From assembly GCA_013378385.1 (NCBI GenBank), contig JACAFS010000016.1:1-19128 (forward strand): 19,128 nucleotides of DNA. The letters run 5' to 3'. The notes under the pieces are model-generated. The model was given only the letters and a program-made list of their open reading frames with translations, made no database searches and had not been told where the DNA came from. The DNA is from Nitrososphaerota archaeon. GTDB lineage: Archaea > Thermoproteota > Nitrososphaeria > Nitrososphaerales > UBA57. The stretch's first letter is position 1. Each line of letters starts with the position of its first letter. This document shows, in pieces, positions 1 through 19,128 of the stretch. Both the position numbers and the translations under genes were made by a program.

Positions 1-2
1 AG

Positions 3-422
3 AAGATAATTCGTCCAACGGGGTATTATTCATTAAAAGCGAATAGAATAAAGAAGACTTCTAAACGTCTTGTAAATGTATACAATTCAAAAGTTCCTGA
101 TAATATGGAAGATTTATTGACCTTGGAAGGTGTTGGTAGAAAAACAGCAAATATTGTACTTTCAGTAGCATTCAAGAAGACCCAAGGAATAGCAGTAGAT
201 ACACACGTAAAAAGACTAAGTAACAGGTTAGGACTTACGGAAAATTCCAACCCAGAAAAGATTGAAATTGATTTAATGAGGAACTTAAAGAGAGAAAATT
301 GGGATAAATTTTCAATATTATTAATATTACATGGAAGGAAGATTTGTAATGCCCGTAAACCAGATTGTAATAATTGTTTGTTAAATGATTTGTGTCCATA
401 CTTTGAGGCTAAGAAAAAATAG
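3..422 (+). CDS. nth: Endonuclease III (HhH-GPD base-excision DNA glycosylase/AP lyase), 5' end cut by the window edge
   Basis: The frame is open from base 3 (KIIRPTGYYSLKANRIKK...) and runs into the listed ORF 105..422. It has the helix-hairpin-helix block LEGVGRKTANIVL and AVDTHVKRLSNRLG. The C-terminal 4Fe-4S motif C-x6-C-x2-C-x5-C reads CNARKPDCNNCLLNDLC. Confidence 0.88.
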   Translation, partial: KIIRPTGYYSLKANRIKKTSKRLVNVYNSKVPDNMEDLLTLEGVGRKTANIVLSVAFKKTQGIAVDTHVKRLSNRLGLTENSNPEKIEIDLMRNLKRENWDKFSILLILHGRKICNARKPDCNNCLLNDLCPYFEAKKK

Positions 423-1326
423 ATGAATTAACTATATCTGAATAATTAATGGAGGGGCTAATTAGATTTCTTTGTGACATCCAAGAATATATTTCATTAA
501 AAGTATCTTCAGGATATTCTTGCCAAGGTTCCCAAGAAGGTATAGAGATATCAGATATATTTTGATTAATTATTTTTTGTTGTTCTAATGAGAATTTATT
601 TATGATAAACTGAATTTTATTAATATAAAAATCTCTTATGTCATCAGGATGATCATTGATATATTGAATTGATTTGTTTGTGGCTCGAATAAATGATTTA
701 ATGTGATCAGTCTCAAGGTCATTGCGAGAAATCATCAAGGTTCCTTTTCTTCTTGTAGATTCCATCAATTTATTTAAACCAAGAGACACTGCAAATTCAC
801 AATATACACCCAAAAGACTAGATGCAGAAGTTTCCTCATTCAAGGTTGACAATAATCTTTCATGAGGATCGCCAAGTTTTAGGAAATTTGAATCATCTAC
901 AGGAAAATACTTTTCTAAATCTTCAATCGCAGTATAATAAGAACCAGTTGATGCCTCCACTGCAATTTTCTTATTTGCAAGTTGTTTAGGATTAGAAAAA
1001 TTAGGTCCAACATATAGTCCAAAACTTCCATTGATAGCAGATTCACTCCATGGAGAATAACAAACAATTTTAGAATCTTCACTTTCGACCACTCGGGATA
1101 GAGATACATATTCAGCAGCATGATAAAAATCAGACAAATTTTTCTTTTGTAGGTCCATGTACATTTGACTTTTGCTTTGTACTTTGCCAACAGGAGTTAC
1201 ATTGTTTACTTTAATCTTTAGATTTTCGTCTTCATAGAATCCATTTTCTATACCAATTAATTCAGGTAAAGACCAATAAAATGCATAATCATTGATACTT
1301 AGATTAATTAGGGTTGAAGTTTCCAT
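409..1326 (-). CDS. Hypothetical protein with an SsuA/NMT1/THI5-like periplasmic-binding-protein type-2 fold; no signal peptide
   Basis: 305-aa ORF. Its pattern resembles nitrate/sulfonate/bicarbonate-type binding proteins (KKIAVEASTGSYYTAIEDL; C-terminal ...IKSFIRATNKSIQYINDHPDD). There is no N-terminal hydrophobic segment. The family call is by eye only. Its 3' end overlaps nth by 14 nt. Confidence 0.45.
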   Translation of the reverse strand: METSTLINLSINDYAFYWSLPELIGIENGFYEDENLKIKVNNVTPVGKVQSKSQMYMDLQKKNLSDFYHAAEYVSLSRVVESEDSKIVCYSPWSESAINGSFGLYVGPNFSNPKQLANKKIAVEASTGSYYTAIEDLEKYFPVDDSNFLKLGDPHERLLSTLNEETSASSLLGVYCEFAVSLGLNKLMESTRRKGTLMISRNDLETDHIKSFIRATNKSIQYINDHPDDIRDFYINKIQFIINKFSLEQQKIINQNISDISIPSWEPWQEYPEDTFNEIYSWMSQRNLISPSINYSDIVNSSIFS

Positions 1327-1430
1327 TGTATTGTTACTATATTACACAAAACTTTATTAAATTGTTTGGCACATTTCCAATTTGTGAACAACAACAAAAG
1401 AATGTCAACTTTAAGTGTAGATTTACTTCT

Positions 1431-1485
1431 AAGTCTACTACTTAGACTTTAAAATTTCACCAATTACAAGTAAAATTTTGGTGAA
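1431..1485. promoter_or_regulatory. Two short inverted repeats inside the 225-nt divergent intergenic region (candidate operator sites or RNA hairpins)
   Basis: Repeat 1: aagtcta-ctact-tagactt (1431..1449), 7-bp arms. Repeat 2: ttcaccaa-(14 nt)-ttggtgaa (1456..1485), 8-bp arms. Both lie between the divergent starts at 1326 (-) and 1552 (+). Confidence 0.2.
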
Positions 1486-1551
1486 TATGTTGGCGTCTAG
1501 AGTTCATAAAATCTGTAAATTATCACAAAAAGTAACTGGACAGTATATACA

Positions 1552-2031
1552 ATGAAAAATGAATATTTGATATCAACAGTAGTCGAAAATAAACCTGGCG
1601 TTCTATACAGAACTGCAAATGTATTCAGGCAGAGGGGTTACAACATACGAAGTATATCAGTAGGTGAATTGAGAGATAATTCAATGTCAAGGATGACATT
1701 TGTAATTGAGGCTGAGGAAAATGCTATAAATCAATTAGTAAAAGTAATGAACAAACAAATAGATGTAGTAGATGTAAAGATTCTCGACCCAAAGAGATTA
1801 ATCAAAAAAGAATTAGCATTGATTAAGATTTATGTAAAGGATCAGAAAATGATACCAAAAATAAGAGATATAGCAAACATAGGAACAATAATTGATGAAT
1901 CAGTAAATTCAATAATAATCGAGGTTACTGGAACGTCAGAGAAAATTACAGACTTTGTTGAATTAGCATCAGATTATGGAAAAATAGATATATCTAGAAC
2001 GGGATTAACAGCTATTGAGAGAGGAGAATAA
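1552..2031 (+). CDS. ilvN: Acetolactate synthase (AHAS) small regulatory subunit, ACT domain
   Basis: 159 aa. The N-terminal ACT block is ISTVVENKPGVLYRTANVFRQRGYNIRSISVG...MSRMTFVI, followed by the usual second ACT-like half. Its stop lies 1 nt before the leuA ATG. Confidence 0.85.
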   Translation: MKNEYLISTVVENKPGVLYRTANVFRQRGYNIRSISVGELRDNSMSRMTFVIEAEENAINQLVKVMNKQIDVVDVKILDPKRLIKKELALIKIYVKDQKMIPKIRDIANIGTIIDESVNSIIIEVTGTSEKITDFVELASDYGKIDISRTGLTAIERGE

Positions 2032-2032
2032 C

Positions 2033-3565
2033 ATGGTAGACACAAATAAATTAATTAAGATATTTGATACAACGTTACGAGACGGTGAACAAACACCAGG
2101 AGTAAGTCTTACTCCAGAAGATAAATTAAAAATTGCTATACAATTAGATAAACTTGGAGTAGATACAATAGAAGCAGGATTTCCTATAACATCAAGAGGG
2201 GAAGCAGATGCAGTAAAAGCAATTGCAGAAGCAGGATTAAAGAGTGAGATATGCGGATTAGCAAGGGCAGAACCAAAGGATATAGAAACTGCATTAAAAT
2301 GTAATGTGGACTTAGTGCATGTTTTCATAGCAACATCAGACATACATATGGAACACAAGCTAAAGATGGGAAGAGATGAAGTAATAAAAAAGGCTGCAGA
2401 AATGGTAAAATTAGTAAAAGAAAGAGGAGTGCCAGTAGAATTCTCTGCAGAGGATGCGTGTAGATCAGATCCTGATTTCTTAATCAAGGTATTTCAAGAA
2501 GTAAGTAAAGCAGGCGCGGATAGAATAGACGTAGCAGACACAGTGGGAATAATGAATCCAACCACAATGTTTGATTTAGTAACAAAAGTAAAACAAGCAG
2601 TAAAAGAACCAATAAGTATGCATTGCCATAATGATTTTGGTTTAGCTACTGCAAATTCACTTGCAGGAATGTTAGCAGGTGCAGAAAGAATACATGTTGC
2701 AATTAATGGTTTAGGGGAAAGAGCTGGAAATGCAGCATTAGAAGAAGTAGTAATGTCAGTGCAAAATCTATATCAGAAAGAAACAAACATTAATACAAGA
2801 TTGATTTATGAAACGTCAAACCTAGTTTCTAGACTTACAGGAATCAATCCACAACCAAATAAAGCAATAATAGGAGATAATGCATTTGGTCATGAATCGG
2901 GAATTCACGTACATGGAATTATCAATATGCCAATCACATACGAGCCATTGGAACCAGAGACAGTAGGAAGAAAAAGATGGATACAAGCAGGTAAACATGC
3001 AGGAACGCATGGTGTAAAGGCACAATTAGAAGAATTAGGTTATGAAGCAAGTAATCAACAAGTTAAGGAAATATTAGGAAGAGTAAAGGATCTAGGTGAT
3101 AAAGGAAAGAGATTGACAGATATGGATCTAGACTCTATTGCGCGATCGATTCTAGGACAAGAAAGTGAAGAGAGAGTATTAGAATTAATAGATATATCGG
3201 TAATGACAGGAATTAAATCAACGCCAACTGCATCTGTAAAGATTTCAATGAATGGTGAGACACATGTTGCAGCGGAAACAGGAGTAGGTCCAGTAGATTC
3301 TGCAATTAAAGCAATTCAGAAAATTAGTGATAAAATCGCGCATATTAGATTAAAAGACTTCAGGATAGAGGCAATATCAGGCGGAACTGACGCATTAGGC
3401 GAAGTTATCATCAAAGTAGAAGATAATGAAGGAAATATTGCAACTGCAAGATCGTCAGACGGAGATATTGTAATTGCAAGTACAGAAGCAATGATTGATG
3501 GAATAAATAAGATTCTTACTAAAAAGAAGATTTCTTCACCAAAAGAACAGTTAGCAAATCCATAG
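2033..3565 (+). CDS. leuA: 2-isopropylmalate synthase (LeuA/CimA family, with C-terminal regulatory domain)
   Basis: It carries the signature IFDTTLRDGEQTPGV, the HxH metal site (MHCHNDFGLATANSLA) and GHESGIH, plus a long C-terminal LeuA-dimer-type domain. I prefer the ATG at 2033 over the TTG at 2015 that the ORF track uses. Citramalate synthase cannot be excluded from sequence alone. Confidence 0.8.
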   Translation: MVDTNKLIKIFDTTLRDGEQTPGVSLTPEDKLKIAIQLDKLGVDTIEAGFPITSRGEADAVKAIAEAGLKSEICGLARAEPKDIETALKCNVDLVHVFIATSDIHMEHKLKMGRDEVIKKAAEMVKLVKERGVPVEFSAEDACRSDPDFLIKVFQEVSKAGADRIDVADTVGIMNPTTMFDLVTKVKQAVKEPISMHCHNDFGLATANSLAGMLAGAERIHVAINGLGERAGNAALEEVVMSVQNLYQKETNINTRLIYETSNLVSRLTGINPQPNKAIIGDNAFGHESGIHVHGIINMPITYEPLEPETVGRKRWIQAGKHAGTHGVKAQLEELGYEASNQQVKEILGRVKDLGDKGKRLTDMDLDSIARSILGQESEERVLELIDISVMTGIKSTPTASVKISMNGETHVAAETGVGPVDSAIKAIQKISDKIAHIRLKDFRIEAISGGTDALGEVIIKVEDNEGNIATARSSDGDIVIASTEAMIDGINKILTKKKISSPKEQLANP

Positions 3566-3584
3566 TTGAAGGAGTTAATACATA

Positions 3585-3659
3585 ATGGTAATGACAATAA
3601 CTGAGAAAATCATAGCAGTACATGCAGGTTTAGAAAATAATGACCGAAACATTATTTGA
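3585..3659 (+). CDS. Upstream mini-ORF (24 codons) overlapping the leuC start in another frame
   Basis: ATG at 3585, preceded by GGAG at 3571..3574. The peptide is [24 protein letters not shown], with stop TGA at 3657..3659. It overlaps the leuC ATG (3640) by 20 nt. It is too short for the ORF track. Confidence 0.25.
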
Positions 3660-5049
3660 GAAAATATGGAATTCCCATGTTGTAGTTGAAAGAGAGAACG
3701 AACCTTCTTTAATTTACATTGATCGTCATCTTGTTCATGAGGTAACCTCGCCTCAAGCATTTGATGGACTAAGAGTTAACAATAGACAAGTTAGACGTCC
3801 TGATCTTACAATAGCTACAATTGATCATAATGTTCCAACCACCGATAGAAGCTTGCCAATGGTTGATGAGACTTCCGCCACACAAATTAATACATTAGAA
3901 AAGAATTGTAAGGATTTTGGAATAAAGCTATTTGGAATTAATGATCCTAATCAGGGAATTGTTCATGTCATAGGACCTCAATTAGGAATTACATTACCTG
4001 GAAGTACGATTGTATGCGGCGATAGTCATACTTCTACTCAAGGTGCTTTTGGCGCTTTTGCTTTTGGTATTGGAACAAGTGAAGTTGAACATACACTTGC
4101 AACTCAAACATTATGGCTTGAAAAACCAAAAACCTTTGAAATTCTCGCTACTGGTAAACGAAGAAATTCATTTGCTGTAACATCCAAGGACATAATTTTG
4201 AGCATAATTAAAAAAATTGGAACTGATGGCGGAGCAGGTCATGTATTGGAATATCGTGGCGATGCAATTAGTGATTTATCAATGGAACAAAGAATGACTA
4301 TCTGTAATATGTCAATCGAAGCAGGTTCTAGAGCTGGTTTGATTGCTCCTGATGAAAAAGCATTTGATTACATCAATAATAGAGAATACACTCCAAAAAA
4401 TTATGATGAGTTAGTTGATACTTGGAAAGATAATCTAATGTCAGATACAAATGCAAAATTTGATAAGAGTTTTACAATTGATGTAGAAAGAATTGAACCT
4501 CAGGTCAGTTGGGGAACAAATCCTGCAATGGTATCTGATGTAACAGGAACCGTTCCTACTCCTGAAGAATACGGTCAGAGTAATGAAATACAAATTAAAA
4601 GTGCAAAAAAAGCATTAGAATACATGGATTTAGAGTCTGGAACTCCTATTGTAGAAATTCCTATTGACAGGGTGTTCATTGGCTCTTGTACAAATGCTAG
4701 ATTAGAAGATTTGAAAGATGCGGCAGAAATTGTGAGAGGTAAGACAGTTAATCCTGATGTAAACGCAATGGTTGTTCCAGGTTCACAGATGGTAAAACAT
4801 GAAGCTGAAAAACTGGGATTAGATAAAATCTTCAAGGATGCAAATTTTGAATGGAGAGAATCTGGTTGTAGCATGTGTCTTGGAATGAATCCTGATATTT
4901 TAAAACCCGGAGAACGTTGTGCCAGTACATCTAATAGAAACTTTGAGGGACGGCAAGGTTCTGGCGGGAGAACGCATCTTGTTAGTCCTGTGATGGCAGC
5001 TGCGTCTGCAATTGCGGGTCATTTTGTCGATGTGAGGGAATGGAATTAG
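3640..5049 (+). CDS. leuC: 3-isopropylmalate dehydratase large subunit, long bacterial-type form
   Basis: 469 aa. The N-terminus [12 protein letters not shown]...[22 protein letters not shown] closely mirrors the E. coli-type LeuC. Aconitase-family Fe-S cysteines are present ([22 protein letters not shown]). Confidence 0.92.
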
Positions 5050-5636
5050 AATTGGAGCCTTTTTCTAAAGTTAATAGCATAATCACGCCCTTTGATAAAG
5101 CAAATGTAGATACTGATCAAATAATTCCAAAGCAATTCCTTAAACTAATTACAAAATCAGGATTTGGAAAATTTCTCTTTTATGACTGGAGATTTGATCG
5201 TGATGGGAAGCCAAAAGATGATTTTGTTTTGAATGACTCACACTATGAAGATTCTCAAGTTTTGGTTACGAATGAAAATTTCGGATGTGGTTCATCAAGA
5301 GAACATGCTGTTTGGGCATTGAAGGACTTTGGATTTAATGTTATAATTTCCCCGTCATTTGCTGATATTTTCTATAGTAATTGCTTCAAAAATGGCGTTT
5401 TACCAATAATTCTTGATATTGAAAAGATTCATAAATTATTGCAGTTTGAAGATGAGATAGAACTTGATCTGAATTCTCAAAAAATTACTCTGGGCGATGA
5501 ATATATAAATTTTGAGATTGATTCGCATAGAAAAGTTAGATTGTTGGAAGGTCTAGATGAGATTGATCTTACACTTAAAGAAGATGAAAAAATTGGAAAA
5601 TTTGAAAATGACTCTTCCATAGTATCAATCTTTTAG
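5040..5636 (+). CDS. leuD: 3-isopropylmalate dehydratase small subunit, long bacterial-type form
   Basis: 198 aa, with [24 protein letters not shown] and [15 protein letters not shown]. Its ATG overlaps the leuC 3' end by 10 nt. Confidence 0.92.
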
Positions 5637-5644
5637 ATTGAAAA

Positions 5645-5761
5645 TTAGATTCTTTTAGCACGTTTGAAACTATTGCCGCAACTTGAACAAATATTAGTAT
5701 CAGTTTTTATATTTAGTTCAAAATTTGCAGACCAGCAATTAGGACAAACAGAAACTGACAA
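5645..5761 (-). CDS. Candidate 38-codon zinc-ribbon mini-protein (C-x2-C-x15-C-x2-C)
   Basis: I translated this by hand: (TTG)SVSVCPNCWSANFELNIKTDTNICSSCGNSFKRAKRI, stop TAA at 5645..5647. The frame opens 4 nt after the stop of the upstream dehydratase gene. There is no ATG, so TTG at 5761..5759 is the only plausible start. Confidence 0.35.
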   Translation of the reverse strand: MSVSVCPNCWSANFELNIKTDTNICSSCGNSFKRAKRI

Positions 5762-5765
5762 AATA

Positions 5766-6920
5766 TCAACTCATTAGACTAAGATGATATTGAACCATTT
5801 CTATAAGAGTGCGATTTAGAGGAATATGATTTTCCCAGCCAAGTTTTTCTTTAGCTTTTGACGCATCTCCAATGAGTACAGGTAAATCTGTAGGTCGCAA
5901 TCTAGTTTCGTCTAATTGATATTTCATATCTTCAACTTTGTATTGTTCACGTGCAACATTCAAAGATATTTCTAATAATTCTGCAATGGATATTCCTTTA
6001 CCGCTAGCCAGATTATACACCTCGCCTTTAGTGCCTTTTTCAATCACAGCCAAATATCCCATAACAGTATCACGTACATCAGTAAAATCACGAATAGAAT
6101 CAAGATTTCCAAGAGTGACAGATTTACGTTTATCTTTTATTCCTTGAGCGATTTGTCTTGTTATTTCACTAGTAACGAATTCATTTCCACGTCGAGGACC
6201 GGTGTGATTAAATGCACGAGTTATATGAACGTCAAGCCCATAACATGATACGTATGTTCTACAAGCATCTTCGGCTTGTCTTTTAGATGAACCATATGGA
6301 GAAGTACCAACAGTACGTAAAGGGTTAGTTTCTTTTATAGGAGCCTCATTAATTACATCGTTATTAGAATCAAAATTTGGAGCAGGCAATATAGTATCGT
6401 ATTTTGACAACATAGTTTTGTAGTGTTCGTTATTTTGTATAACGAGCCCATATTCTTCACTAGAACCTGCATAATGTAATGCGACATCACTAGGGGTAAG
6501 ACGTAAAGCTTCAAGCATGTTAAGAGTTCCAGTAACATTTGTAGAATATGTATCGATAGGAGATGCAAAACTATGAGGTACAAATGATTGTGCAGCTAAA
6601 TGATAGATAACATCTGCTTGAGATTCTTTAATTGCATTGACAATTGAGCCAAGATCCTGCAAATCTCCTTTAATTAATTTAATATTTTTTCTATCTAATA
6701 GATGCTGAATATTTCTAAGATTAGGATTTGATTGTCGTCGTAGTAATCCGCAAATATTGGCATTAATTTGAGGTGATGAAAGAATTTCTGTAAGCCAAGA
6801 ACCAACAAAACCAGTTATTCCAGTGATTAGAACATTCTTACCTTTCCAATAATTAGCATTAACTCGATTAATTGCAGTGGCAGTTGTTTCATTTTGTAAA
6901 GTAAGTTGTTCAGACATCAA
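5766..6920 (-). CDS. NDP-sugar 4,6-dehydratase, extended SDR family (GDP-mannose 4,6-dehydratase/Rmd-like)
   Basis: It has the Rossmann motif VLITGITGFVGSW and the catalytic YGSSKRQAE (YxxxK). The block FNHTGPRRGNEFVTSEITRQIA...LGNLDSIRDF parallels Gmd (FNHESPRRGETFVTRKITR...LGNMDSLRD). Confidence 0.75.
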   Translation of the reverse strand: MMSEQLTLQNETTATAINRVNANYWKGKNVLITGITGFVGSWLTEILSSPQINANICGLLRRQSNPNLRNIQHLLDRKNIKLIKGDLQDLGSIVNAIKESQADVIYHLAAQSFVPHSFASPIDTYSTNVTGTLNMLEALRLTPSDVALHYAGSSEEYGLVIQNNEHYKTMLSKYDTILPAPNFDSNNDVINEAPIKETNPLRTVGTSPYGSSKRQAEDACRTYVSCYGLDVHITRAFNHTGPRRGNEFVTSEITRQIAQGIKDKRKSVTLGNLDSIRDFTDVRDTVMGYLAVIEKGTKGEVYNLASGKGISIAELLEISLNVAREQYKVEDMKYQLDETRLRPTDLPVLIGDASKAKEKLGWENHIPLNRTLIEMVQYHLSLMS

Positions 6921-6999
6921 CTATGATTACTAGAACAATAATAAAAATATTTCAGATGATTTTTGTTTGGTCAATATATTAAAAAATATGAGAAAATGA

Positions 7000-7038
7000 T
7001 AATATCGCTATAAAACAGGGAGATTTATAGCGATATTA
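7000..7038 (-). terminator. Perfect 14-15 bp hairpin followed by T-tracts, just downstream of the SBP gene
   Basis: aatatcgctataaa (7001..7014) and tttatagcgatatt (7024..7037) are exact reverse complements, separated by a 9-nt loop. On the minus strand the hairpin is followed by ATCATTTTCTCATATTTTTT. It sits 12 nt after the stop at 7050 and upstream of the promoter space for the 6920 gene. Confidence 0.55.
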
Positions 7039-7049
7039 GATATTGAGAA

Positions 7050-8096
7050 TTAGACTCCTGCTATTTCTTTGAATATAGTAGTCCACTCAGCGTGATTGGC
7101 TCGTGCTGCATCACTTGGGTATCTAAGAAGATCCATACCTGCAGGAGCGGCAGCTCCAATAGTATGCTTTGTTTTACCTTCAACTGATGGTAAAGCTGCG
7201 AATCTTACATCGACATTACCAATCAATATTTGTGCTTCTTCACTAACCAAGAAATTAATCCATACTTTTGCTGCGTCTGGATTCTCAGATGCTTCAAGGA
7301 GTACGGCTGCAGTTGGACCCCACATCAATGGGAAATCTTCTAATTGAAGTATTCCGACAGGTGCTCCGTCCATTTGTGCCTTTACTACATCATGGAATTG
7401 ACCTACAATACCAATGTGATATTCACCACGTGAGACTTCGTCTGTTTGTGCGCCGGTACTGCGTTGTCTTACAGGTTGTACATTAGCTTCCAGTCGAGTT
7501 AGGAAATCAATTGTTGCTTCTTTACCAAGGGATTCTTCTGCAATAGTAGCCCAGATTCTTGTAGAGGTTGTACCTCTTGAGTAATCATGCATTGTAATTT
7601 TACCGTTCCATTTTGGATCAGTAAGGTCGTTCAATGTTTTAGGTAATTCATCTTCTGAGATAAGATTTGTATTATAAGTAATTACTTGACCAAGTAAAAG
7701 AACGCCTTGCCAATATCCATCGGGATCTTTTAGTTCGTCAGGCCAATTAGCTGCATTTGGTGCTTGGTATGGTTGTGCAAATCCATCATCTACCAAAGAT
7801 AATGAACCAGGAAAACTGAGCATTACTACATCAGCTGTTTTTGCTCCTGCGTCAATCTCAGTAGAGATTCGAGTATAGACCTCGGAAGGAGAACCTCGAA
7901 CATAATCGATTTTTATATCTGGGTAGGCTTCATGAAATGCGTCAATAGTTGTTTGCATATCTTCTGCATCGACACTTCCATAAACCAATACGGTGCCCGA
8001 ACCTGATGGTCCGCTATTGAAAAAAGTTAAACCTGCTACTGCAAGAATTGCTATTGCAACTACTGCAACTAACAGATTACGATTCTGTGCTAACAT
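7050..8096 (-). CDS. Extracellular solute-binding protein, Fe3+-type (SBP family 1 / AfuA-FbpA-like), N-terminal membrane anchor or signal
   Basis: 348 aa. The N-terminus MLAQNRNLLVAVVAIAILAVAGLTFF is followed by a GPSGSG linker. The mature domain starts TVLVYGSVDAEDMQTTIDAFHEAYPDIKIDYVRG. The ligand is unknown. The gene is visibly more GC-rich than its neighbours. Confidence 0.7.
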   Translation of the reverse strand: MLAQNRNLLVAVVAIAILAVAGLTFFNSGPSGSGTVLVYGSVDAEDMQTTIDAFHEAYPDIKIDYVRGSPSEVYTRISTEIDAGAKTADVVMLSFPGSLSLVDDGFAQPYQAPNAANWPDELKDPDGYWQGVLLLGQVITYNTNLISEDELPKTLNDLTDPKWNGKITMHDYSRGTTSTRIWATIAEESLGKEATIDFLTRLEANVQPVRQRSTGAQTDEVSRGEYHIGIVGQFHDVVKAQMDGAPVGILQLEDFPLMWGPTAAVLLEASENPDAAKVWINFLVSEEAQILIGNVDVRFAALPSVEGKTKHTIGAAAPAGMDLLRYPSDAARANHAEWTTIFKEIAGV

Positions 8097-8161
8097 ACCT
8101 GAGATTAATGTAAATATTTATATCTGTACCCTGTTAGAATTATTATAACAACAGTGAATAG

Positions 8162-8974
8162 GTGATAAAATTAGAGACTGCAAGTAGTAAACATCCACAT
8201 GTAAAGAAAGGAAGGGTTAGAGAGAATATAATCAACCAATTATCTCAGCAGCCATATTCATTGACGGACCTTTCTAGAATACTAAAGGTATCAAAACCAA
8301 CCATAAGTTATCATTTAACTAATTTAATCAAAGATAGCATAATTGAAATTTCTGGAACCAAGAGTGGAAGAGGAGGATTTAGATCAAAACTTTATGTGTT
8401 AAAACATAATTTAGACAGTACGCTCCCAAGTTCATCTTCGGATTCGCATTATCTAGATTTATTATCAGGAATATTTGAGAGTAATAAACTAGAATGGTCC
8501 GTAGAAAAAAATAATAAACTAGGTAAAGACATACAATTATTCCTATTTCATGTATTCAGGCTATTGAGAAATGTTACAAAGACAAGACATCATGACATAC
8601 TAAGAAATTATGGAAAGAGGGTAGGTAAAGAGGTAATTGCTAAAAAATTTAACAGTAATTTAAAAGATAATTTAAATGGATTATCGGAATTTTTTGAAGA
8701 AAATGAGATAGGAAATATTAAAACAATATTAAGTGTTGAAAAATATCATCCGCAATACAAGTTCCAATGTTTAGGGTGTTTTCAAGCAAGGGAAAATGGA
8801 GGTCCTGTTTGTAATTTTACAAAAGGGATGATTGAAGGATTTCTAGAATATAATTATGGCGATAGATATGAAATTGGAGAAAGGCAGAAAGATGGAACGT
8901 TATATGAATCATGTGTATTCCCCATGAGAAGAACAAAAAAACGCGGAAGGGCAGAAGCAATAAATATTGGATGA
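8162..8974 (+). CDS. Transcription regulator: ArsR-type winged HTH fused to a C-terminal V4R (4-vinyl-reductase-like small-molecule-binding) domain
   Basis: The HTH reads YSLTDLSRILKVSKPTISYHLTNLIKDSIIE. The C-terminus CLGCFQARENGGPVCNFTKGMIEGFLEYNYG...YESCVFPM fits the V4R cysteine/glycine pattern. The start is GTG, immediately after an in-frame TAG, and there is no nearby ATG. Confidence 0.65.
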   Translation: MIKLETASSKHPHVKKGRVRENIINQLSQQPYSLTDLSRILKVSKPTISYHLTNLIKDSIIEISGTKSGRGGFRSKLYVLKHNLDSTLPSSSSDSHYLDLLSGIFESNKLEWSVEKNNKLGKDIQLFLFHVFRLLRNVTKTRHHDILRNYGKRVGKEVIAKKFNSNLKDNLNGLSEFFEENEIGNIKTILSVEKYHPQYKFQCLGCFQARENGGPVCNFTKGMIEGFLEYNYGDRYEIGERQKDGTLYESCVFPMRRTKKRGRAEAINIG

Positions 8975-8975
8975 T

Positions 8976-9680
8976 TTATTCTTTTAAAACATAAACAGAA
9001 TGAATTGAATCAAACATGGACCAAAGTATATCCTCAGTAAACAATACAGAATCTACTGCTTTTAGTTGCATTTCATAAGAATCAGCATATTTCACAACAA
9101 TATTGAAAGCTATTTGGCTGTCTTTCCGAGCTTGGGCAGATAAGGACATAAAATAACCGAGTCCGTTAGGGTCGATAAAATCTCCATAATGTTTAGACAA
9201 GGCATAAACACGTTTATCGATTGCAGCTGACAAGAATAGTTGATTAAGGGAAGTTGAAATTCCCTCAAACCAAGAATGTGTCTTAACATAATTTAATAAT
9301 GAATCAGATGCAATACGTACACCTGGCAAATAATTATCTAAATATAATGATTTTTTATTCATACCTGTTGATTCGGCGAATTTAATCCATCCTTGTATAG
9401 CGCCTTCAGATTCTGAATAACCGTCGTATTCCAGTATTCGTGAAATCCAAAGCCTACGAACGTCAGATAAAGGGCAATTAGAAATCACAGCGCCGTCTTT
9501 CAATGGAATCATATTTTGATAATAGAACCAATTAGTGATCCAACCATGTATTTGAGTTTTGTTTAGTTTCCCTTCGTATAAGAGCGTGTTAAATGGATGC
9601 TTATCAGGATAGCGTTTTTTTGCTTCGCTTTTGATTAGTGCAAGAAACTTGTTTCGAGGCAATGGTTTCTTGTTTGACAT
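8976..9680 (-). CDS. pqqC: PqqC-family protein (pyrroloquinoline-quinone synthase-like, heme-oxygenase-like fold) with a divergent substrate pocket
   Basis: Full-length by-eye collinearity with bacterial PqqC: QIHGWITNWFYYQNMIPLKDGAVISNCP..VRRLWISRILEYDG; LPGVRIASDSLLNY; SLNQLF; EDILWSMFDSI. I prefer the ATG at 9680. The ORF-track start at 9713 is a TTG. Confidence 0.75.
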   Translation of the reverse strand: MSNKKPLPRNKFLALIKSEAKKRYPDKHPFNTLLYEGKLNKTQIHGWITNWFYYQNMIPLKDGAVISNCPLSDVRRLWISRILEYDGYSESEGAIQGWIKFAESTGMNKKSLYLDNYLPGVRIASDSLLNYVKTHSWFEGISTSLNQLFLSAAIDKRVYALSKHYGDFIDPNGLGYFMSLSAQARKDSQIAFNIVVKYADSYEMQLKAVDSVLFTEDILWSMFDSIHSVYVLKE

Positions 9681-9760
9681 AGAAAAAATATAGGTAGAAT
9701 CTAATAAAAACAATACGTAATCAATATATTGGTTTACACTCTATTTAGAATCAATATCAA

Positions 9761-10060
9761 ATGAAGAGATTTTACTTTGTTTTAGGAGTGGTACTTGTGA
9801 TACTTAGCTTAGTAGTATATCAGTCAGTAATGGAACAAGTTAGAGAGTTTGAAGAGTTGTTAAGAACAGTAGAAGAAGCAGGGGCCGATGCAAGGATAGG
9901 AATAGAACGAGCGGGATTGGACATTCAACAGGCGGAAAATATTAACGCTCGAATAAATACTACAATGCTTGTAAGTAGAGGATTAGGCGGATTGGGCGCA
10001 TTCCTGCTTTTTTATTCAACGTATGAAGAATTAATAAAATTAAAAAACAGATTCATTTAG
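9761..10060 (+). CDS. Small two-TM membrane protein, unknown family (paralogue A)
   Basis: 99 aa. It has an N-terminal TM (FYFVLGVVLVILSLVVYQS), a charged middle segment of about 45 aa, a C-terminal TM (GLGGLGAFLLFYSTY) and the tail EELIKLKNRFI. Confidence 0.55.
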   Translation: MKRFYFVLGVVLVILSLVVYQSVMEQVREFEELLRTVEEAGADARIGIERAGLDIQQAENINARINTTMLVSRGLGGLGAFLLFYSTYEELIKLKNRFI

Positions 10061-10114
10061 AGTTATCTGTGAAACTAAAATAGACTAATTAATTGTGAGG
10101 GCACGTAGTGATAC

Positions 10115-10459
10115 ATGAGAAGGAGAGATCTAATATTAGGAATAATCTTTCTTTCATTAGGTTTTTTGTTATATCAATCAGCATCGAATCAGAATAATGA
10201 GATTGAAGAGTTTATCATAATAGAATTGGATGCAGGAAATTTAATTAAACAAATGTATTGTGTAGTAATGATCGATAATCAATGTGAAGTTAGAGATGTG
10301 GAATATGGAGGAATATTGATAGATGATCTTGATGAAATGATCGATCGAATGGACAATACAAAAGCAATGAGCAGGGTATCTTTTGTTATAGGGATATTTT
10401 TGGCATTATTTTCGATCAAGAAAGAGTTACTAAAAGTTAAGAATTACTTGTGGGATTAG
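10115..10459 (+). CDS. Small two-TM membrane protein, unknown family (paralogue B)
   Basis: 114 aa with the same architecture as the upstream gene: LILGIIFLSLGFLLYQS, an acidic middle with 2 Cys, the TM VSFVIGIFLALFSI and the tail KKELLKVKNYLWD. Confidence 0.55.
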   Translation: MRRRDLILGIIFLSLGFLLYQSASNQNNEIEEFIIIELDAGNLIKQMYCVVMIDNQCEVRDVEYGGILIDDLDEMIDRMDNTKAMSRVSFVIGIFLALFSIKKELLKVKNYLWD

Positions 10460-10460
10460 A

Positions 10461-11468
10461 TTATTTTTTTAAGACTTTATCGACGTCGGTATTAAATGCC
10501 TCGTCGGTTGTAACATGATTTTTAAATAAATTTTGGAATAATTGTCTATCCTTATCAGTATTATTTATTACATCGAGTGATGGGAAAATTGAGTATTTTT
10601 CATTTGGCAATATATTGGAAATCGAGTATTTAGAATCGGATTCTATATAGGCTGGAACTCGGATGTAGTTATTGCCAATCATATTCTGGCCTTCTTTGGA
10701 GAGTATATAATCAATGAATAATTTAGCAGATTCTAGATTACTAGAAGTCTTTAGTATAGAGGCGACAGTAGCGGAGATGTATAAAGGAATATCTGAAAGA
10801 ATGAGTCTCTCAATAGGAAGGTTCTTGTCTTTTGCACGAAGATATTCATAAAACATAACTGTAAGACCGATATCGCTTTTTCCAAGACTGACACTGCCGA
10901 GAACGTGTCTGAATAATGGCCAAAGTTGTAAATTTTGATGTGAAAGTAGATTTATGAAGCGGCTCCAATCGATGCCAGTCAAATTACTACGAAGAGAAGA
11001 TATCCAATTACTTCCAAATGTTCCAAGAGTTATGTCATGTATAGATATACGGTTTTTCCATCGATTGTCAAGTAGATCTTTAGAGCTTGTAGGAACCTCG
11101 TCAACATCAATAAGTTCACGATTGTAGATTTGCATAGTAGGTAAGAGTACGACGGATGTCCAGAATCCTTCTGAATCTTTGAATGACTCGGGAATATTAC
11201 GTCTTTCGGGAGAGTTATAAACTTGAAATAAGTCTTGATTTTGCATCTGTAAATGTGGAGAAATTGCACTCAGAACTATATCTGCGGACGAACCGGTGTT
11301 TGATAAATCATGTGTAATTTGTGTAGACATGGGAGGAGGCGTTCCGTATACATATTTACGCAAGTATTCAATTTTGATGTTTGGATGAACTTTATTGAAA
11401 CCAATTATCCAAGAATCGAATTCCCAGGTTTCGATTGTGCCATAAATAATTAGTTTATTATTACTCAA
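10461..11468 (-). CDS. Fe3+-type SBP-fold protein without signal peptide; paralogue of the 7050..8096 product
   Basis: 335 aa. It aligns by eye with the other SBP: LIIYGTIETWEFDSWIIGFNKVHPNIKIEYLRK vs LVYGSVDAEDMQTTIDAFHEAYPDIKIDYVRG; FKDSEGFWTSVVLL vs LKDPDGYWQGVLLL; RWKNRISIHD vs KWNGKITMHD. The TTG start overlaps the upstream TGA (TTGA). An in-frame TAA two codons upstream rules out a longer N-terminus. Confidence 0.65.
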   Translation of the reverse strand: MSNNKLIIYGTIETWEFDSWIIGFNKVHPNIKIEYLRKYVYGTPPPMSTQITHDLSNTGSSADIVLSAISPHLQMQNQDLFQVYNSPERRNIPESFKDSEGFWTSVVLLPTMQIYNRELIDVDEVPTSSKDLLDNRWKNRISIHDITLGTFGSNWISSLRSNLTGIDWSRFINLLSHQNLQLWPLFRHVLGSVSLGKSDIGLTVMFYEYLRAKDKNLPIERLILSDIPLYISATVASILKTSSNLESAKLFIDYILSKEGQNMIGNNYIRVPAYIESDSKYSISNILPNEKYSIFPSLDVINNTDKDRQLFQNLFKNHVTTDEAFNTDVDKVLKK

Positions 11469-13255
11469 TTTTTAATCCTACGTCTAGTTACTATTGTAGC
11501 ATAGATTAGAGATACAAGAGTGATTGCAAATAATAGATAATCGTAAGATGATTCAGAAGATTCATCAACTGACATAGAGACAAGGATGCCAGGATTATTG
11601 CCAGTTAATGTGCCGCCTCCCATTGGAAACACAACCATCATTGAGCCTTTTGCATCAGCGCCAATAGAAGGACCCGCAGAACCCATTGAATTGAAAGGTA
11701 TGGAATTAAGGATTGTTCCATCTTCTATGTCGATAGCATAGAATATCCCACTGCGATCTATTGAATACAATACATCGGCACTTACAATTAGAGAAGCGCT
11801 TTGTATTCGATCGGGGATAGTTATTTGCCATTTTAATTCAGAAGTAGATAAATCAATAGCGTATATAGAACCATTTGTTGGTCGATCTAGATCAAGACGG
11901 TATACATAGCCGTCAATAACTTCTCCCTTGTATTCTAACTGTCTTGTAAGAACAGTTCCACAGACATTCTGAGATGGGATATATGCAACGTTATCAGCAA
12001 CAGACATTCCAGCAAATACACCGCCTAATTGACTAGGGCAAAATATTTCGCCGACATACTTGGTTTGGGATGCATACATATCGGATTGATTTTCAGTGTT
12101 TTCGTTTGTTAGATTATAACTTTCTGGACCAAAATGTATAGGCTTGTGAATTAGATCTCCAGTGAGAGCATCTACTACATACAAATAATTACTTTTTGAA
12201 GCAGCAATGATTGCTTTACGGTCTACGTCATTTACAGAAATAGTCGTATAAACAACTTTCCAACCGGGATCATTATTATTGATATCATGAGTGCTCATCT
12301 GGTAATACCATTTTAGAGTTCCAGAATTTATATCAAGTGCAACAATAGAGCTTGAGAACAGATTAGGGCCAGGACGGAGAGCTGCGTCAAATTGATTTGC
12401 AGGTTCGCCTGTCAAAAGAAACAATGTTTCAGATTCTTCGTCAATTGCAACTAATCCCCAAGATGTACCTCCAGCAATATAATTAGTATAGCCCCAATCA
12501 TTTTCAAATGGTAGAATATTACCCAATTTTGCTTCGTCGTATCCCCAGTTTAATTCACCACCTGCAGGTGGGGAAGAAAACCACTGCCAAACTAACTCTT
12601 TAGTTTCTAGATCATAGGCAGACACATATCCACGTCCGCCGAATGCATTTCCCTGTGCCCTAGTTATTAGAAGATTATTATAAAAAGTAGGTGCAAATGG
12701 AGAGAAATATTCGCCGTTATTTCCAGGGATATTAGAACACGTTTCGGGTAATTCGAATACTACATCACCGGTTATTAAATCGAGGCCGTAGATAGAACAT
12801 TCGCTAGTCTGAACATAAACAGCGTCTTCATGTATTGTAAGTGATCTCATAGCAAGTCGTTTTGCCCAAACTTCAGTATTCTTAAAATCATTAATATCAG
12901 GTTTAAAAGACCATAACGGACTACCATCCATAGCATCAATTGCATAGACTTCATTGTAACCAGTTGCGACATATACAATTCCTTGGTAAATCAATGGAGT
13001 AGTCTGAATTCCTTCGGGAGGAACTATATCATCGTCTAGAGGTTCTACACTATCGAATTGATAAATCCAATTAAGTTCTAAGTTTTTAACATTATCTTTT
13101 GAAATTACGGTTTGTGGGCTAAAACCTGTATTGTACTTATCAAATGCAGAATACTTCCAATCAAAGACACTTTCCGAACTCACAGTAGAGATATTACCGA
13201 CAAATAATAAGAATATTAAAAAAGTTAATAGCTTATACAATAGACTTCTAAACAT
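11465..13255 (-). CDS. PQQ-dependent dehydrogenase-like 8-bladed beta-propeller (quinoprotein family), secreted, with C-terminal TM tail anchor
   Basis: Family blocks: FSPQTVISKDNVKNLELNW; EGIQTTPLIYQGIVYVATGYNEVYAIDAMDGSPLW; GGRGYVSAYDLETKELVWQW; GGTSWGLVAIDEE..LFLLTG; IVALDINSGTLKWYYQMSTHD. The signal peptide is MFRSLLYKLLTFLIFLLFVGNISTVSS, from the ATG at 13255. A longer ORF starts at the ATG at 13300. The C-terminus is YLLFAITLVSLIYATIV-TRRRIKN. Confidence 0.75.
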   Translation of the reverse strand: MFRSLLYKLLTFLIFLLFVGNISTVSSESVFDWKYSAFDKYNTGFSPQTVISKDNVKNLELNWIYQFDSVEPLDDDIVPPEGIQTTPLIYQGIVYVATGYNEVYAIDAMDGSPLWSFKPDINDFKNTEVWAKRLAMRSLTIHEDAVYVQTSECSIYGLDLITGDVVFELPETCSNIPGNNGEYFSPFAPTFYNNLLITRAQGNAFGGRGYVSAYDLETKELVWQWFSSPPAGGELNWGYDEAKLGNILPFENDWGYTNYIAGGTSWGLVAIDEESETLFLLTGEPANQFDAALRPGPNLFSSSIVALDINSGTLKWYYQMSTHDINNNDPGWKVVYTTISVNDVDRKAIIAASKSNYLYVVDALTGDLIHKPIHFGPESYNLTNENTENQSDMYASQTKYVGEIFCPSQLGGVFAGMSVADNVAYIPSQNVCGTVLTRQLEYKGEVIDGYVYRLDLDRPTNGSIYAIDLSTSELKWQITIPDRIQSASLIVSADVLYSIDRSGIFYAIDIEDGTILNSIPFNSMGSAGPSIGADAKGSMMVVFPMGGGTLTGNNPGILVSMSVDESSESSYDYLLFAITLVSLIYATIVTRRRIKN

Positions 13256-13361
13256 AGAATAGAGCAATAAAGCTTCACAATAATGAGAAAAATAATTCAT
13301 TTTTGGGTAACTAAAGCAATTTTTCTAAAGAAAGTGTGTATTGGAAGTAAAATTAGATTTA

Positions 13362-14087
13362 ATGAACAAGATTAATTGTGGAGATACCCTAGATTTAATG
13401 AAGAATATAGAGTCAAATTCGGTACATCTAGCAATAACGTCGCCGCCGTACAATGTAGGAAAAGACTACGACAGTCACAATGATTTAATGGAATATGATG
13501 AATATTTGAACTGGTTAACAAAAGTTTGGATTGAGACAAAGAGAGTATTAATAGATGGAGGAAGATTTGCATTAAATGTAGGTCCTACAGGAATAAGAGA
13601 TTTCAGGCCTTTGCATCATGACTTGTCAAACAGATTAAGAGAAATCGGAATGATATTCAGAACAGAAATTTTATGGTATAAACAAACAATGTTGAAAAGA
13701 ACGGCATGGGGAAGTTGGAAGAGTCCAAGTAACCCGCATATAATTCCATCATGGGAATATGTATTAATTTTTAGCAATAATTCCATGAAATTAGAAGGAG
13801 ACAAAACAAAATCAGATATTACAAGAGATGAATTTCTCAATTTCTCCGATGGTCATTGGAACATATTACCTGTTACAAAAAATAGAAAAGGGCATCCTGC
13901 ACCATTTCCAGAAGAATTGATCTACAGATTAATAAAATATTATTCGTACGAAGATAATACGATATTAGATATGTTTGGAGGAACTGGTACTGTTGCTTCA
14001 GTTGCTACAAAAAATAACAGGAACTTTATACACATAGATATATCTGAAGAATATTGTGAAATTGCATCTAACCGAATAAAAAAATAG
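13362..14087 (+). CDS. DNA methyltransferase, beta-class N4-cytosine/N6-adenine family (PF01555-like), no adjacent endonuclease
   Basis: Motif IV (AITSPPYN) comes early. HPAPFPEELIYRLI and then motif I (LDMFGGTGTVASVA) come late, which is the beta-class order. I prefer the ATG at 13362. The ORF-track start at 13341 is a TTG. Confidence 0.8.
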   Translation: MNKINCGDTLDLMKNIESNSVHLAITSPPYNVGKDYDSHNDLMEYDEYLNWLTKVWIETKRVLIDGGRFALNVGPTGIRDFRPLHHDLSNRLREIGMIFRTEILWYKQTMLKRTAWGSWKSPSNPHIIPSWEYVLIFSNNSMKLEGDKTKSDITRDEFLNFSDGHWNILPVTKNRKGHPAPFPEELIYRLIKYYSYEDNTILDMFGGTGTVASVATKNNRNFIHIDISEEYCEIASNRIKK

Positions 14088-14088
14088 A

Positions 14089-15114
14089 TTAAGATTGAAT
14101 TGCTTTAATTGTGTTTTTCCACCAATAAGACATCTCAGGTGACATGTTAGAGTCAAATGGAAGATAGAAATTAATACGATCCAACAGGCCAGAATATTTT
14201 TTTATGGCAAGAGGGGCAATTTCGTTAGGAGTGCCAATTATTGCAACAGTTTCAAGAATTTCATCAGTAATTAGTTTAGGCATGTCCTTAAAGTTACCAG
14301 AAGAAGACAATCGATTAAGTTCCTTGGCAATGTCGCCCCAACCATGCGTCTCAAGCACCTTAGAATATGTAGGGGTGGATGAATAGAATGCAATCTGTGA
14401 TCGAACAAATTCCCTGGTTTTTATCATTGAATCAGAATCAGGACCGGTAATAACGAAGGCAGATCCGCTTATTGAAACGTCTTTAATATTGCGATCGTGA
14501 GATTCGCAGCCAATTTCAATATTTGGAATAATAAAATCTTCTATGTATTCTTTAGTATGCAAAGGATGAACATGAAAACCATCACATACTTCCCCTGCGG
14601 CTTTACATAGCGATTCATTTACACCAGCAATATAGATAGGGATGTTAGGATGGTCTATAGGTCCAGGATTAAAGAAAGGAGTCATAAGATTTAGCTTATA
14701 ATAATTTCCATTGAAATTCAAGGGAGTTTGAGTTTGCCAACAATCCCATATGTGGCGAATGCAAGAAATTATTTCCTTGAGTTGAGAAACAGGAGAATCC
14801 CAGGGCATTCCGAATCTTCTTTTTACATGAGATCTTACCTGTGTACCAAGACCTAAAAAGAATCTTCCGTTAGAAAGCTGTGATAAATCCCAAGAAGTAT
14901 AAGCAAGAACCATCGGACTTCGTGCCAATGCAACAGAAATAGCAGTACCTAATTTAATTTTATTTGTATTTTGAGATGCAATGGAAAGAGGAAGAAAGGG
15001 ATTATGTTTAGTTTCACTAGTCCACATACAATTAAAACCAATTTCCTCAGCAGCGATAGATAATTTAGAAATATCATTAATCGAATAATCAGCAAAAACG
15101 ACGTCAATATCCAT
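14089..15114 (-). CDS. Luciferase-like monooxygenase (LLM) class oxidoreductase, probably F420-dependent
   Basis: 341 aa with a TIM-barrel LLM pattern: LSIAAEEIGFNCMWTSETKHNPFLPLS, LGTAISVALARSPMVLAYTSWDLSQLSNGRFFLGLGTQV and IYIAGVNESLCKAAGEVCDGF. Confidence 0.7.
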   Translation of the reverse strand: MDIDVVFADYSINDISKLSIAAEEIGFNCMWTSETKHNPFLPLSIASQNTNKIKLGTAISVALARSPMVLAYTSWDLSQLSNGRFFLGLGTQVRSHVKRRFGMPWDSPVSQLKEIISCIRHIWDCWQTQTPLNFNGNYYKLNLMTPFFNPGPIDHPNIPIYIAGVNESLCKAAGEVCDGFHVHPLHTKEYIEDFIIPNIEIGCESHDRNIKDVSISGSAFVITGPDSDSMIKTREFVRSQIAFYSSTPTYSKVLETHGWGDIAKELNRLSSSGNFKDMPKLITDEILETVAIIGTPNEIAPLAIKKYSGLLDRINFYLPFDSNMSPEMSYWWKNTIKAIQS

Positions 15115-15160
15115 TAAGGAACAATAAATCTAATTGAATATAAAAAATAAGGACAATAAT

Positions 15161-15175
15161 TCGTCGTGTATAGTT
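15161..15175. other. 3' half of the 23S rRNA precursor processing stem
   Basis: tcgtcgtgtatagtt is the exact reverse complement of aactatacacgacga at 18266..18280. The two halves bracket the whole 23S. Confidence 0.7.
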
Positions 15176-15199
15176 TTTACGTGGTATAGAAATGAACAT

Positions 15200-18245
<3,046 letters not shown>

Positions 18246-18393
18246 CATCTCTATACGCTATACGCAACTATACACGACGATAATTGTGTTAAACACTACG
18301 TCCTTCACTCTTCAAGATCTTTGAAGAGTTGCATCTAAATATGACATCTTGAAATTTTTAGTCAAAACTGTACTCCCTATCACTATTTATTCT
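18246..18393 (-). other. 16S-23S internal transcribed spacer without tRNA
   Basis: About 150 nt lie between the 16S 3' end and the 23S 5' end. I found no cloverleaf-capable segment or T-loop consensus. It contains the 23S stem half at 18266..18280 and a 9-bp hairpin (actcttcaa-gatct-ttgaagagt) at 18307..18329. Confidence 0.7.
18266..18280. other. 5' half of the 23S rRNA precursor processing stem
   Basis: Exact 15-nt complement of 15161..15175. Partial complementarity continues on both sides (acaat at 15153..15157 with attgt at 18283..18287). Confidence 0.7.

Positions 18394-19128
<735 letters not shown>

Follow-up and report, generated by a model that had tools for sequence, protein, structure and literature searches.

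A Thaumarchaeota clade of PqqC-like proteins with a remodelled pocket, tentatively read as neofunctionalised paralogues of pyrroloquinoline-quinone synthase

The question raised by contig JACAFS010000016.1 of the Nitrososphaerota archaeon assembly GCA_013378385.1, from an uncultured archaeon of the deep ocean, is whether an archaeal gene named after PqqC, the synthase of the cofactor pyrroloquinoline quinone (PQQ), encodes that enzyme. The stretch analysed (positions 1 to 19,128, 19,128 nt; hereafter the window) carries on its minus strand, at 8976..9680 with the stop codon included, a gene for a PqqC-like protein of 234 amino acids, recognised as an open reading frame (ORF) with Pfam, TIGR02111 and PDB matches. 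The gene is 98% identical to genes in the metagenome-assembled genomes (MAGs) "Thaumarchaeota archaeon ATL" and "Langseth_MAG_00051" and 75–89% identical to those of UBA223, a Nitrosopumilales MAG and ASW2_bin45; these MAGs represent, or are similar to, the heterotrophic marine Thaumarchaeota (HMT) reported by Aylward and Santoro (2020). In Data Set S4 of that study this gene, number 7 on ATL contig 5, appears as "pqqC, pyrroloquinoline-quinone synthase", the only PQQ-biosynthesis entry for the HMT MAG, and the conclusion drawn was that HMT "can likely produce the cofactor" (PMC7300363). The gain of "pqqC" was also read as PQQ synthesis by Sheridan et al. (PMC10640624). Public databases name homologues PqqC, K06137 or, in some records, "hypothetical protein", and literature searches for analyses of archaeal or orphan PqqC homologues found none in the library covered. 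Our answer, held tentatively, is that the gene belongs to a clade, class A, that may be a neofunctionalised PqqC paralogue provisioning cofactor from an imported, less anionic precursor.

Among known families, the protein would work most like PqqC. It matches Pfam PF03070 with 84.7 bits and the NCBIfam PqqC equivalog TIGR02111 (EC 1.3.3.11) with 216 bits (5e-64), which does not reach the curated cut-off of 240; on the same model the canonical protein P0220 scores 324 bits, the archaeal class B described below 282 and deep members of class A 239. The best phmmer matches among PDB sequences were M. extorquens PqqC/D (5.9e-46) and Klebsiella PqqC (1otv/1otw, ~2.7e-45). These alignments are full-length and nearly gap-free, with single one-residue gaps, and are anchored by GW(I/V)xN-FYYQxxIPLKD, SNCP, VRRxWxxRIL, LPGVR and DILWSM. 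The identity to characterised or annotated PqqCs is 34–42% over the full length. The protein has no signal peptide, is predicted to be cytoplasmic and forms a seven-helix heme-oxygenase-like bundle. An AlphaFold2 model built from 72 homologues (pLDDT 95.1, pTM 0.90) superimposes on PqqC as a protein of that fold should, and its top Foldseek match is the PQQ-bound Klebsiella PqqC 1otw_A (TMq 0.93, E 6e-15). The view of the first-pass annotation, made by eye from the sequence, that the protein is collinear with bacterial PqqC over its whole length is thus borne out by E-values of ~1e-45, by the full-length alignment and by the fold.

Other families of the fold are more distant. CADD/CT610-type para-aminobenzoate (pABA) synthase and the heme-oxygenase-like dimetal oxidases (HDOs) share it (TM 0.79–0.82 to 1rcw and 8va9), but at 14–16% identity, and the CADD model TIGR04305 gives 43 bits (cut-off 200). 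Only one His, H28, is found among the positions invariant in class A, so a three-His, three-carboxylate dimetal site is impossible. A dimetal HDO/CADD identity was ruled out by the TIGR04305 score and this lone His. To TenA proteins a likeness was seen at the level of the fold (TM 0.61–0.70, 9–14% identity), and no TenA model among the NCBIfam profiles matched.

The residues that hold PQQ and its precursor AHQQ were mapped, in Klebsiella numbering, with a HMMER pairwise alignment and two MAFFT alignments that included Klebsiella residues 23–232; identical motifs flank each site (NxFYYQ, RILxxDG, LPGVR, SSLxxLF, YF and DILWSM). About half of these residues are kept, namely Y23, Y53, Q54, K60, R80, R157 and Y175. 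The pocket substitutions are H24P, R50W, H84Y, Y128L, T146N, R179L and K214T, together with H30N, E147Q, R177M and L215E. The earlier reading had found five of the kept residues (Y23, Q54, K60, R80 and Y175) and the first seven substitutions, and had named an error of register as what could overturn it. The computed alignments reproduce all of them, each substitution in HMMER and MAFFT alike, add Y53 and R157 to the one list and the last four substitutions to the other, and show that several of the PQQ-contacting Arg, Lys and His residues are indeed not conserved. H154 had also been counted as probably lost. The position does align to Ile, but H154 varies in genuine PqqCs (Ile in M. extorquens, Met or Ile in most canonical representatives), so it has no diagnostic weight and this argument was dropped.

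In 86 canonical sequences, H24, R50, R179 and K214 are conserved at 100% and Y128 and E147 at ≥98%, and the same residues are nearly invariant among 50%-identity representatives of 1.8 billion proteins. From a set of 12 PqqC pocket residues, cationic, His and others, the archaeal protein keeps K60, R80, R157 and Y175, and the other eight are changed. The pocket is poorer by about three net positive charges and by three or four His, and the comparison with the 86 canonical sequences revealed no compensating new basic residue elsewhere in the protein. The loss of several basic and His residues proposed in the first-pass annotation is real; the replacements are invariant in the clade and uncompensated. 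The cavity of PqqC carries a distinctly positive charge; on binding, H154 and R157 swing inwards, and the helix 170–187 (Y175, R179) coordinates the C7′ carboxylate (PMC2294125). The title of the 3hnh structure in the PDB describes a reaction intermediate trapped in an engineered Y175S/R179S PqqC, and this makes the natural R179L notable. Judging from residue chemistry, the loss of some three positive charges and of the His residues would imply a class A substrate with fewer free carboxylates than AHQQ, or one that is bound differently.

In the exhaustive profile search a single 50%-identity cluster, at 411 bits, represents the clade, and the score then drops to 228 bits for the next protein. 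Class A is defined here as a Thaumarchaeota clade with W50, Q147, L179 and a residue other than Lys at 214, in which Y23, R80, R157, Y175 and K/R60 are kept. The signature (R50W, E147Q, R179L, non-Lys 214) is present in 64 of the 64 full-length cluster members. Variation is found at positions 177 (M/L/I) and 214 (T/A/S/M), and the only other class A-specific invariants are L33, Y88, E139, G140, T143 and L150. Towards the HMT branch the pocket changes stepwise: deep class A proteins keep H84, Y128 and T146, the next group has L128, and P24, Y84 and N/S146 are restricted to the HMT branch, where these extra changes are fixed (24 of 24 HMT-type members). Class A is monophyletic in the neighbour-joining (NJ) tree with 67% bootstrap, and the HMT branch with 100%. 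The dN/dS among HMT orthologues is 0.03–0.10, pairs with unsaturated dS included, and the gene is under strong purifying selection. A pseudogene or decaying gene is ruled out by these values and by the invariant replacement residues; given the low dN/dS and the clade-wide fixed replacements, class A represents a selected new pocket.

Could such a pocket still convert AHQQ to PQQ? A bona fide synthase, in which other residues hold the substrate (W50 by ring stacking, for example) and the early pathway steps are encoded elsewhere or by non-homologous genes, would agree with the identity of 34–42% and full-length collinearity, with the fold of the PQQ-bound form and with the seven kept residues, and the variability of H154 means that PqqC tolerates some pocket changes. 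It is hard to square with the uncompensated loss of R50, R179, K214 and H24, the further loss of H84 in the HMT branch and the stalling of the R179S/Y175S mutant at an intermediate. A demand for the cofactor exists, since HMT genomes contain 4–19 PQQ dehydrogenases, which are highly expressed and account for ~3% of the small genome (PMC7300363), and one such gene lies 1.8 kb from the PqqC-like gene in the window. The rest of the pathway was looked for in the window and 22 fetched archaeal loci (numbered with the prefix L), with L019 as a bacterial control. No pqqB, pqqD or pqqE was found in the window or the 22 archaeal loci, the search covering the loci and not whole genomes. A scan for the PqqA motif E-[VIL]-[TSNRC]-x-Y near the end of a short ORF gave nothing in the window or the archaeal loci and recovered the pqqA of L019, a canonical relative with the order pqqA-pqqB-pqqC-pqqD-pqqE. 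With a TIGR02111 score under the equivalog cut-off, no pqqA, pqqB, pqqD or pqqE in any archaeal locus examined and a near-canonical class B protein (282 bits) in the same MAG as a class A protein, which implies different roles, a standard synthase is unlikely. Of four testable marks of PqqC membership, three (the HMM cut-off, the pocket residues and the operon context) set the protein apart, and the fold agrees.

The same substitutions raise the question of whether the protein is an enzyme at all. H24, H84 and H154 are the His residues proposed for acid–base chemistry in PqqC. Their loss could have turned PqqC into a non-catalytic binding protein, a cytoplasmic carrier, chaperone or sensor of PQQ or a related quinone, and the HMT branch has neither H24 nor H84 and no His at 154. 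A ligand-type regulator adjoins the gene, product release is rate-limiting for canonical PqqC in vitro (PMC2294125), and PQQ probes enrich PqqC (PMC13088180). Deeper class A members keep H84, however, and the clade-wide losses concern cationic residues that would be expected to bind the carboxylates, so PQQ binding should weaken; the pocket-specific conservation of W50, Q147, L150 and L179 also looks like a specific active site. A role in binding alone thus appears highly doubtful.

Beyond class A, a second database search and a residue table distinguished four divergent archaeal PqqC-like types, B, C, E and F. Class B (e.g., MCS4538685.1, P0166) is near-canonical, with only Y23F, R50M, T146S and E147D; unlike class A it keeps H24, H84, Y128, R179 and K214 and passes the TIGR02111 cut-off. 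Class C (203 bits) has H24V/I, Y53L, H84R, Y128L, T146Y, Y175F and K214M. Class E (177 bits) has W50 and L179 in common with class A, and the NJ tree joins the two with 78% bootstrap. Type F (P0372) reaches 131 bits with TIGR02111, 69 bits with PF14518 and 83 bits with CADD and looks more HDO-like than class A; type F proteins (P0372/P0128) are abundant in Tara samples.

In the MAG GCA_024860875.1 a class A gene on contig 1 occurs together with a class B gene on contig 17, so class A is a paralogue and not merely the archaeal orthologue of PqqC. Close accession numbers suggest a second MAG with both. Classes A and B are 46–53% identical and presumably paralogues with different roles; the NJ tree does not group them as sister duplicates (3% bootstrap), despite the 51–53% identity of deep class A to class B. 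Class B is likewise an archaeal orphan without pqqB, pqqD or pqqE nearby; the island around it contains PQQ dehydrogenases, a binding protein, an ATPase of the ATP-binding cassette (ABC) type and transporters of the major facilitator superfamily (MFS). The proteins P0410 (type F) and P0303 (class A) have the same longest contig, of 22,353 bp, which hints at one contig with both.

Canonical PqqC and class A thus share the fold, 34–42% identity, the lack of a metal site and the NCP, VRRxW and DILW motifs. They differ in the score (216 bits against the cut-off of 240), in the clade-wide R50W, E147Q, R179L and changed R177 and K214, in the H24P, H84Y, Y128L and T146N/S of the HMT branch and in the position of class A outside a pqqABCDE operon, next to an MsvR-like regulator and FbpA-like binding proteins. 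The proposal of the first-pass annotation that the protein is neofunctionalised rather than a standard PQQ synthase is supported in part, by the residue loss without compensation, its fixation, the selection on the pocket, the score below the cut-off, the absence of pqqA, pqqB, pqqD and pqqE nearby and the paralogue coexisting in one MAG.

What the protein might do instead is suggested by its neighbours. Most archaeal PqqC-like loci carry parts of one module, which consists of an MsvR-like regulator, a membrane-anchored FbpA-like binding protein, a fused ABC permease and an ATPase, often with surface PQQ dehydrogenases and MFS transporters as well. Homology between the components extends over their full length, with identities of 27–31% for the regulators, 31–58% for the type-1 binding proteins, 36–62% for the permeases and 42% for the ATPases. 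The module is conserved and previously undescribed, and class A is a variant of a known enzyme family.

In the window, the MsvR-like regulator (8162..8974, plus strand; ArsR-type helix-turn-helix and V4R-like C-terminal domain, with HTH_5 and V4R matches) is convergent with the PqqC-like gene at a distance of 1 nt. It reaches 89.6 bits with the MsvR model NF053755, below the cut-off of 220, has full-length homologues in L018 (31% identity, 4e-33) and L015 (27%, 4e-29) and HTH_5 counterparts in L009/L010, and is conserved beside PqqC-like genes of classes A, C and E. The type-1 binding protein (7050..8096, minus strand) is an FbpA/PhnS-like ABC substrate-binding protein, extracellular, with an N-terminal membrane anchor. 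It is 58% identical to its counterpart in L009, 31% to that in L015 and 34% to that in L018, and its orthologues sit with a fused permease beside class A, C and E PqqC-like genes. In all HMT loci this membrane-anchored protein is an orphan.

The PQQ-dependent dehydrogenase homologue at 11465..13300 (minus strand; PF01011, 173 bits) is an eight-bladed propeller of the alcohol-dehydrogenase type that scores 225 bits with TIGR03075 (cut-off 480 not reached) and matches 1kv9 best in the PDB (2.5e-35). It has a Sec-type signal peptide, a C-terminal membrane anchor and no twin-arginine motif. With such a signal and anchor the enzyme would be extracellular and would need PQQ outside the cell. Loading of the cofactor in the cytoplasm followed by twin-arginine (Tat) export, which would explain PQQ import, was ruled out by the Sec signal and the missing twin arginine. 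The start of the gene for a type-2 binding-protein homologue (10461..11468, minus strand), which has neither signal peptide nor membrane anchor and would thus be cytoplasmic, overlaps the dehydrogenase stop by 4 nt. Among the fetched loci, the nearest relative of this homologue is encoded at L023 6210–7175 (37% identity, 5e-84). Signal-less FbpA-like homologues were also seen at L007 11060–12028 and L018 1930–2874 besides that one, and the L023 gene starts 13 nt after the PqqC-like gene.

Elsewhere, PQQ dehydrogenases lie within 10 kb of the PqqC-like gene in L001–L004, L007, L009, L015, L018, L020 and L021, as in the window. The class A gene of L009 is 56% identical to the query, and its locus is syntenic, with the addition of a fused permease after the binding protein and two dehydrogenases. 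Between the binding protein and a GDP-mannose dehydratase gene (L009 11455–15451) are genes for this 491-aa fused permease, a 373-aa protein without a Pfam match and a rotamase. In class E (L015) the binding protein, permease and PqqC-like gene follow one another on one strand with a 42-nt gap, and an ATPase, an HTH_5 regulator, MFS transporters and two dehydrogenases are also present. The class C loci combine permease, binding protein, HTH_5 regulator, PqqC-like gene and two or three dehydrogenases, and the class B loci dehydrogenase, PqqC-like gene, binding protein, ATPase, MFS transporters and another dehydrogenase.

The neighbourhood of PQQ dehydrogenases and a conserved importer module suggests that the function of class A is still related to the cofactor. 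In the reading that we prefer, salvage by a neofunctionalised paralogue, the surface binding protein and an ABC importer would take up a PQQ-like precursor or derivative. The class A protein would be a cytoplasmic, cofactor-less, O2-dependent oxidase or cyclase, its substrate probably a PQQ-like compound, a quinoline or pyrroloquinoline, and it would convert the imported compound into, or recycle it to, the quinone cofactor of the cell-surface dehydrogenases. Such a route would be a salvage one and not the last step of the PqqA-based pathway, and classes A, B, C and E would differ in their pockets because their substrates differ. Import with cytoplasmic conversion is the most economical arrangement, as the dehydrogenase is predicted to be extracellular, the PqqC-like protein cytoplasmic, and binding-protein-dependent ABC systems import. 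A wider form of this proposal, to which we give a modest chance, is that Thaumarchaeota do not use the PqqA pathway and import a PQQ precursor, adduct or analogue for conversion by specialised PqqC paralogues (A, B, C and E), or alternatively that class A makes a PQQ variant with fewer free carboxylates for archaeal dehydrogenases.

The closest known logic, by analogy only, may be that of TenA and the ThiXYZ importer, which Jenkins et al. are said to have described in 2007 as a thiamine-pyrimidine salvage pair. Both cases would pair a cytoplasmic enzyme of the PF03070 superfamily with a binding-protein-dependent importer that salvages a cofactor fragment. They differ in that class A resembles TenA weakly, at the level of the fold, and in that the binding proteins of the window are FbpA/PhnS-like and not ThiY/NMT1-like.

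The same neighbourhoods can be read without PQQ. The most consistent neighbours across the types are the binding protein, permease and ATPase, not the dehydrogenase, and class A could be an oxidase or hydrolase acting on the solute of the FbpA-like importer or on another metabolite, the proximity of dehydrogenases reflecting a shared catabolic island. At L023 (JGI 3300035199, 5490–10860, G+C 0.348) a type F gene is followed by genes for the signal-less binding protein and for a permease sharing 61.6% identity with its counterpart beside class A in L009, and no PQQ dehydrogenase was found within 10 kb of that type F gene. The deep class A genes with their housekeeping neighbours, the heavily remodelled pocket and a superfamily that already covers thiaminase II, pABA synthase and other chemistries would suit the same explanation. 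Half of the PQQ-contacting residues are nevertheless still conserved, the likeness to PqqC is far above that to other families (CADD 43 bits against a cut-off of 200; TenA TM 0.65), PQQ dehydrogenases adjoin in most loci of classes A, B, C and E, and the reduced HMT genomes retain the pqqC-like gene alongside many PQQ dehydrogenases (PMC7300363). A function unconnected with PQQ is accordingly judged improbable.

Several observations weigh against salvage as set out above. A tblastn search found no permease, ATPase or MFS gene in the window or in L001–L005; an L023-type locus may be the home of the permease absent from the HMT locus. FbpA-like binding proteins usually carry Fe3+, small anions, phosphonates or phosphorylated compounds, and the importer may be unrelated to the cofactor. 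L005 has no adjacent PQQ dehydrogenase, and the deepest class A genes (L006, L011 and L012) lie among housekeeping genes, with no transporter and no dehydrogenase. PqqC-like genes may also be common in ammonia-oxidising Thaumarchaeota without PQQ dehydrogenases, and pqqA, pqqB, pqqD and pqqE or their analogues may be present elsewhere in HMT genomes, outside the loci searched. The assignment of each lost residue to an individual carboxylate contact is, finally, provisional. An obligatory linkage to a PQQ dehydrogenase is ruled out by L005, the deep class A loci and L023. As for distribution, the orthologous group cluster_604 of Data Set S3 (K06137 / TENA_THI-4) occurs in 51 species, compared with ~64–68 for near-universal genes (PMC7300363).

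A conserved 64–66-aa protein, two-transmembrane-like, is encoded upstream of each deep class A gene (L006 6589–6789, L011 8575–8769 and L012 9717–9911), and a GYD-domain gene is also found immediately upstream of every one of them. The 64–66-aa ORFs were considered as PqqA-like precursor peptides and rejected, being two-transmembrane proteins without an E-x-x-x-Y motif.

The mechanical ORF of the PqqC-like gene reaches further in the 5′ direction, to a TTG at 9713. Translation likely starts instead from the ATG at 9680, the position at which the 234-aa homologues begin and beyond which the L005 orthologue does not extend upstream. In addition, an A/T-rich TATA-like box, TTTTTATTA, can be read directly from the sequence at 9702..9710 (minus strand), 22–30 nt upstream of this ATG. 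The position of the box is consistent with a leaderless archaeal mRNA and would speak against the TTG start.

Two small proteins with hydrophobic N- and C-terminal, transmembrane-like segments are encoded on the plus strand, divergently from the PqqC-like gene, at 9761–10060 and 10115–10459. They are weak tandem paralogues (28% identity, E 5e-8), no family match was found for either, and the 99-aa one is conserved in L005. A ~4-kb block at 10115–14087, comprising the 114-aa membrane protein, the signal-less binding protein, the PQQ dehydrogenase and an N6/N4 DNA methyltransferase (13341–14087), is present in the window and L001–L004 and absent from the otherwise syntenic L005; it is therefore an indel polymorphism among HMT lineages. 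An F420-dependent luciferase-like oxidoreductase (14089–15114, minus strand; TIGR03617 family, 415 bits), conserved in all HMT loci, stands between the module and the rRNA operon. The latter consists of an archaeal 23S rRNA (15198–18241, minus strand) and the 3′ half of a 16S rRNA (18395–19128, minus strand), with a 153-nt spacer between them. The window as a whole yielded no tRNA, and no 5S rRNA adjoins the operon. The G+C content is mostly 30–38%, rising to 44–50% on account of the rRNA region. At the other end, at 1552–5636 on the plus strand, a branched-chain amino-acid cluster encodes an ilvN-like acetolactate synthase small subunit, a leuA-type 2-isopropylmalate/homocitrate synthase and leuC/leuD aconitase-family subunits, and is syntenic in L001, L005 and L009.

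For enzymology, class A offers a natural, conserved "mutant series" of a cofactor-less oxidase pocket, with R50W, R179L and a changed K214 first and H84Y and H24P afterwards. Annotating archaeal genes as K06137 or "PqqC" would over-call PQQ synthesis, as would relying on pqqC as a marker gene. The inferred PQQ autonomy of HMT, an abundant deep-ocean archaeal lineage, rests on this one gene. If the gene does not encode a standard PQQ synthase, HMT either depend on a bacterial cofactor or precursor through cross-feeding or use an undescribed route, and either would change models of HMT carbon metabolism. A salvage module or a PQQ variant, if true, would mean that one of the most abundant deep-ocean lineages obtains a major redox cofactor by a new route.

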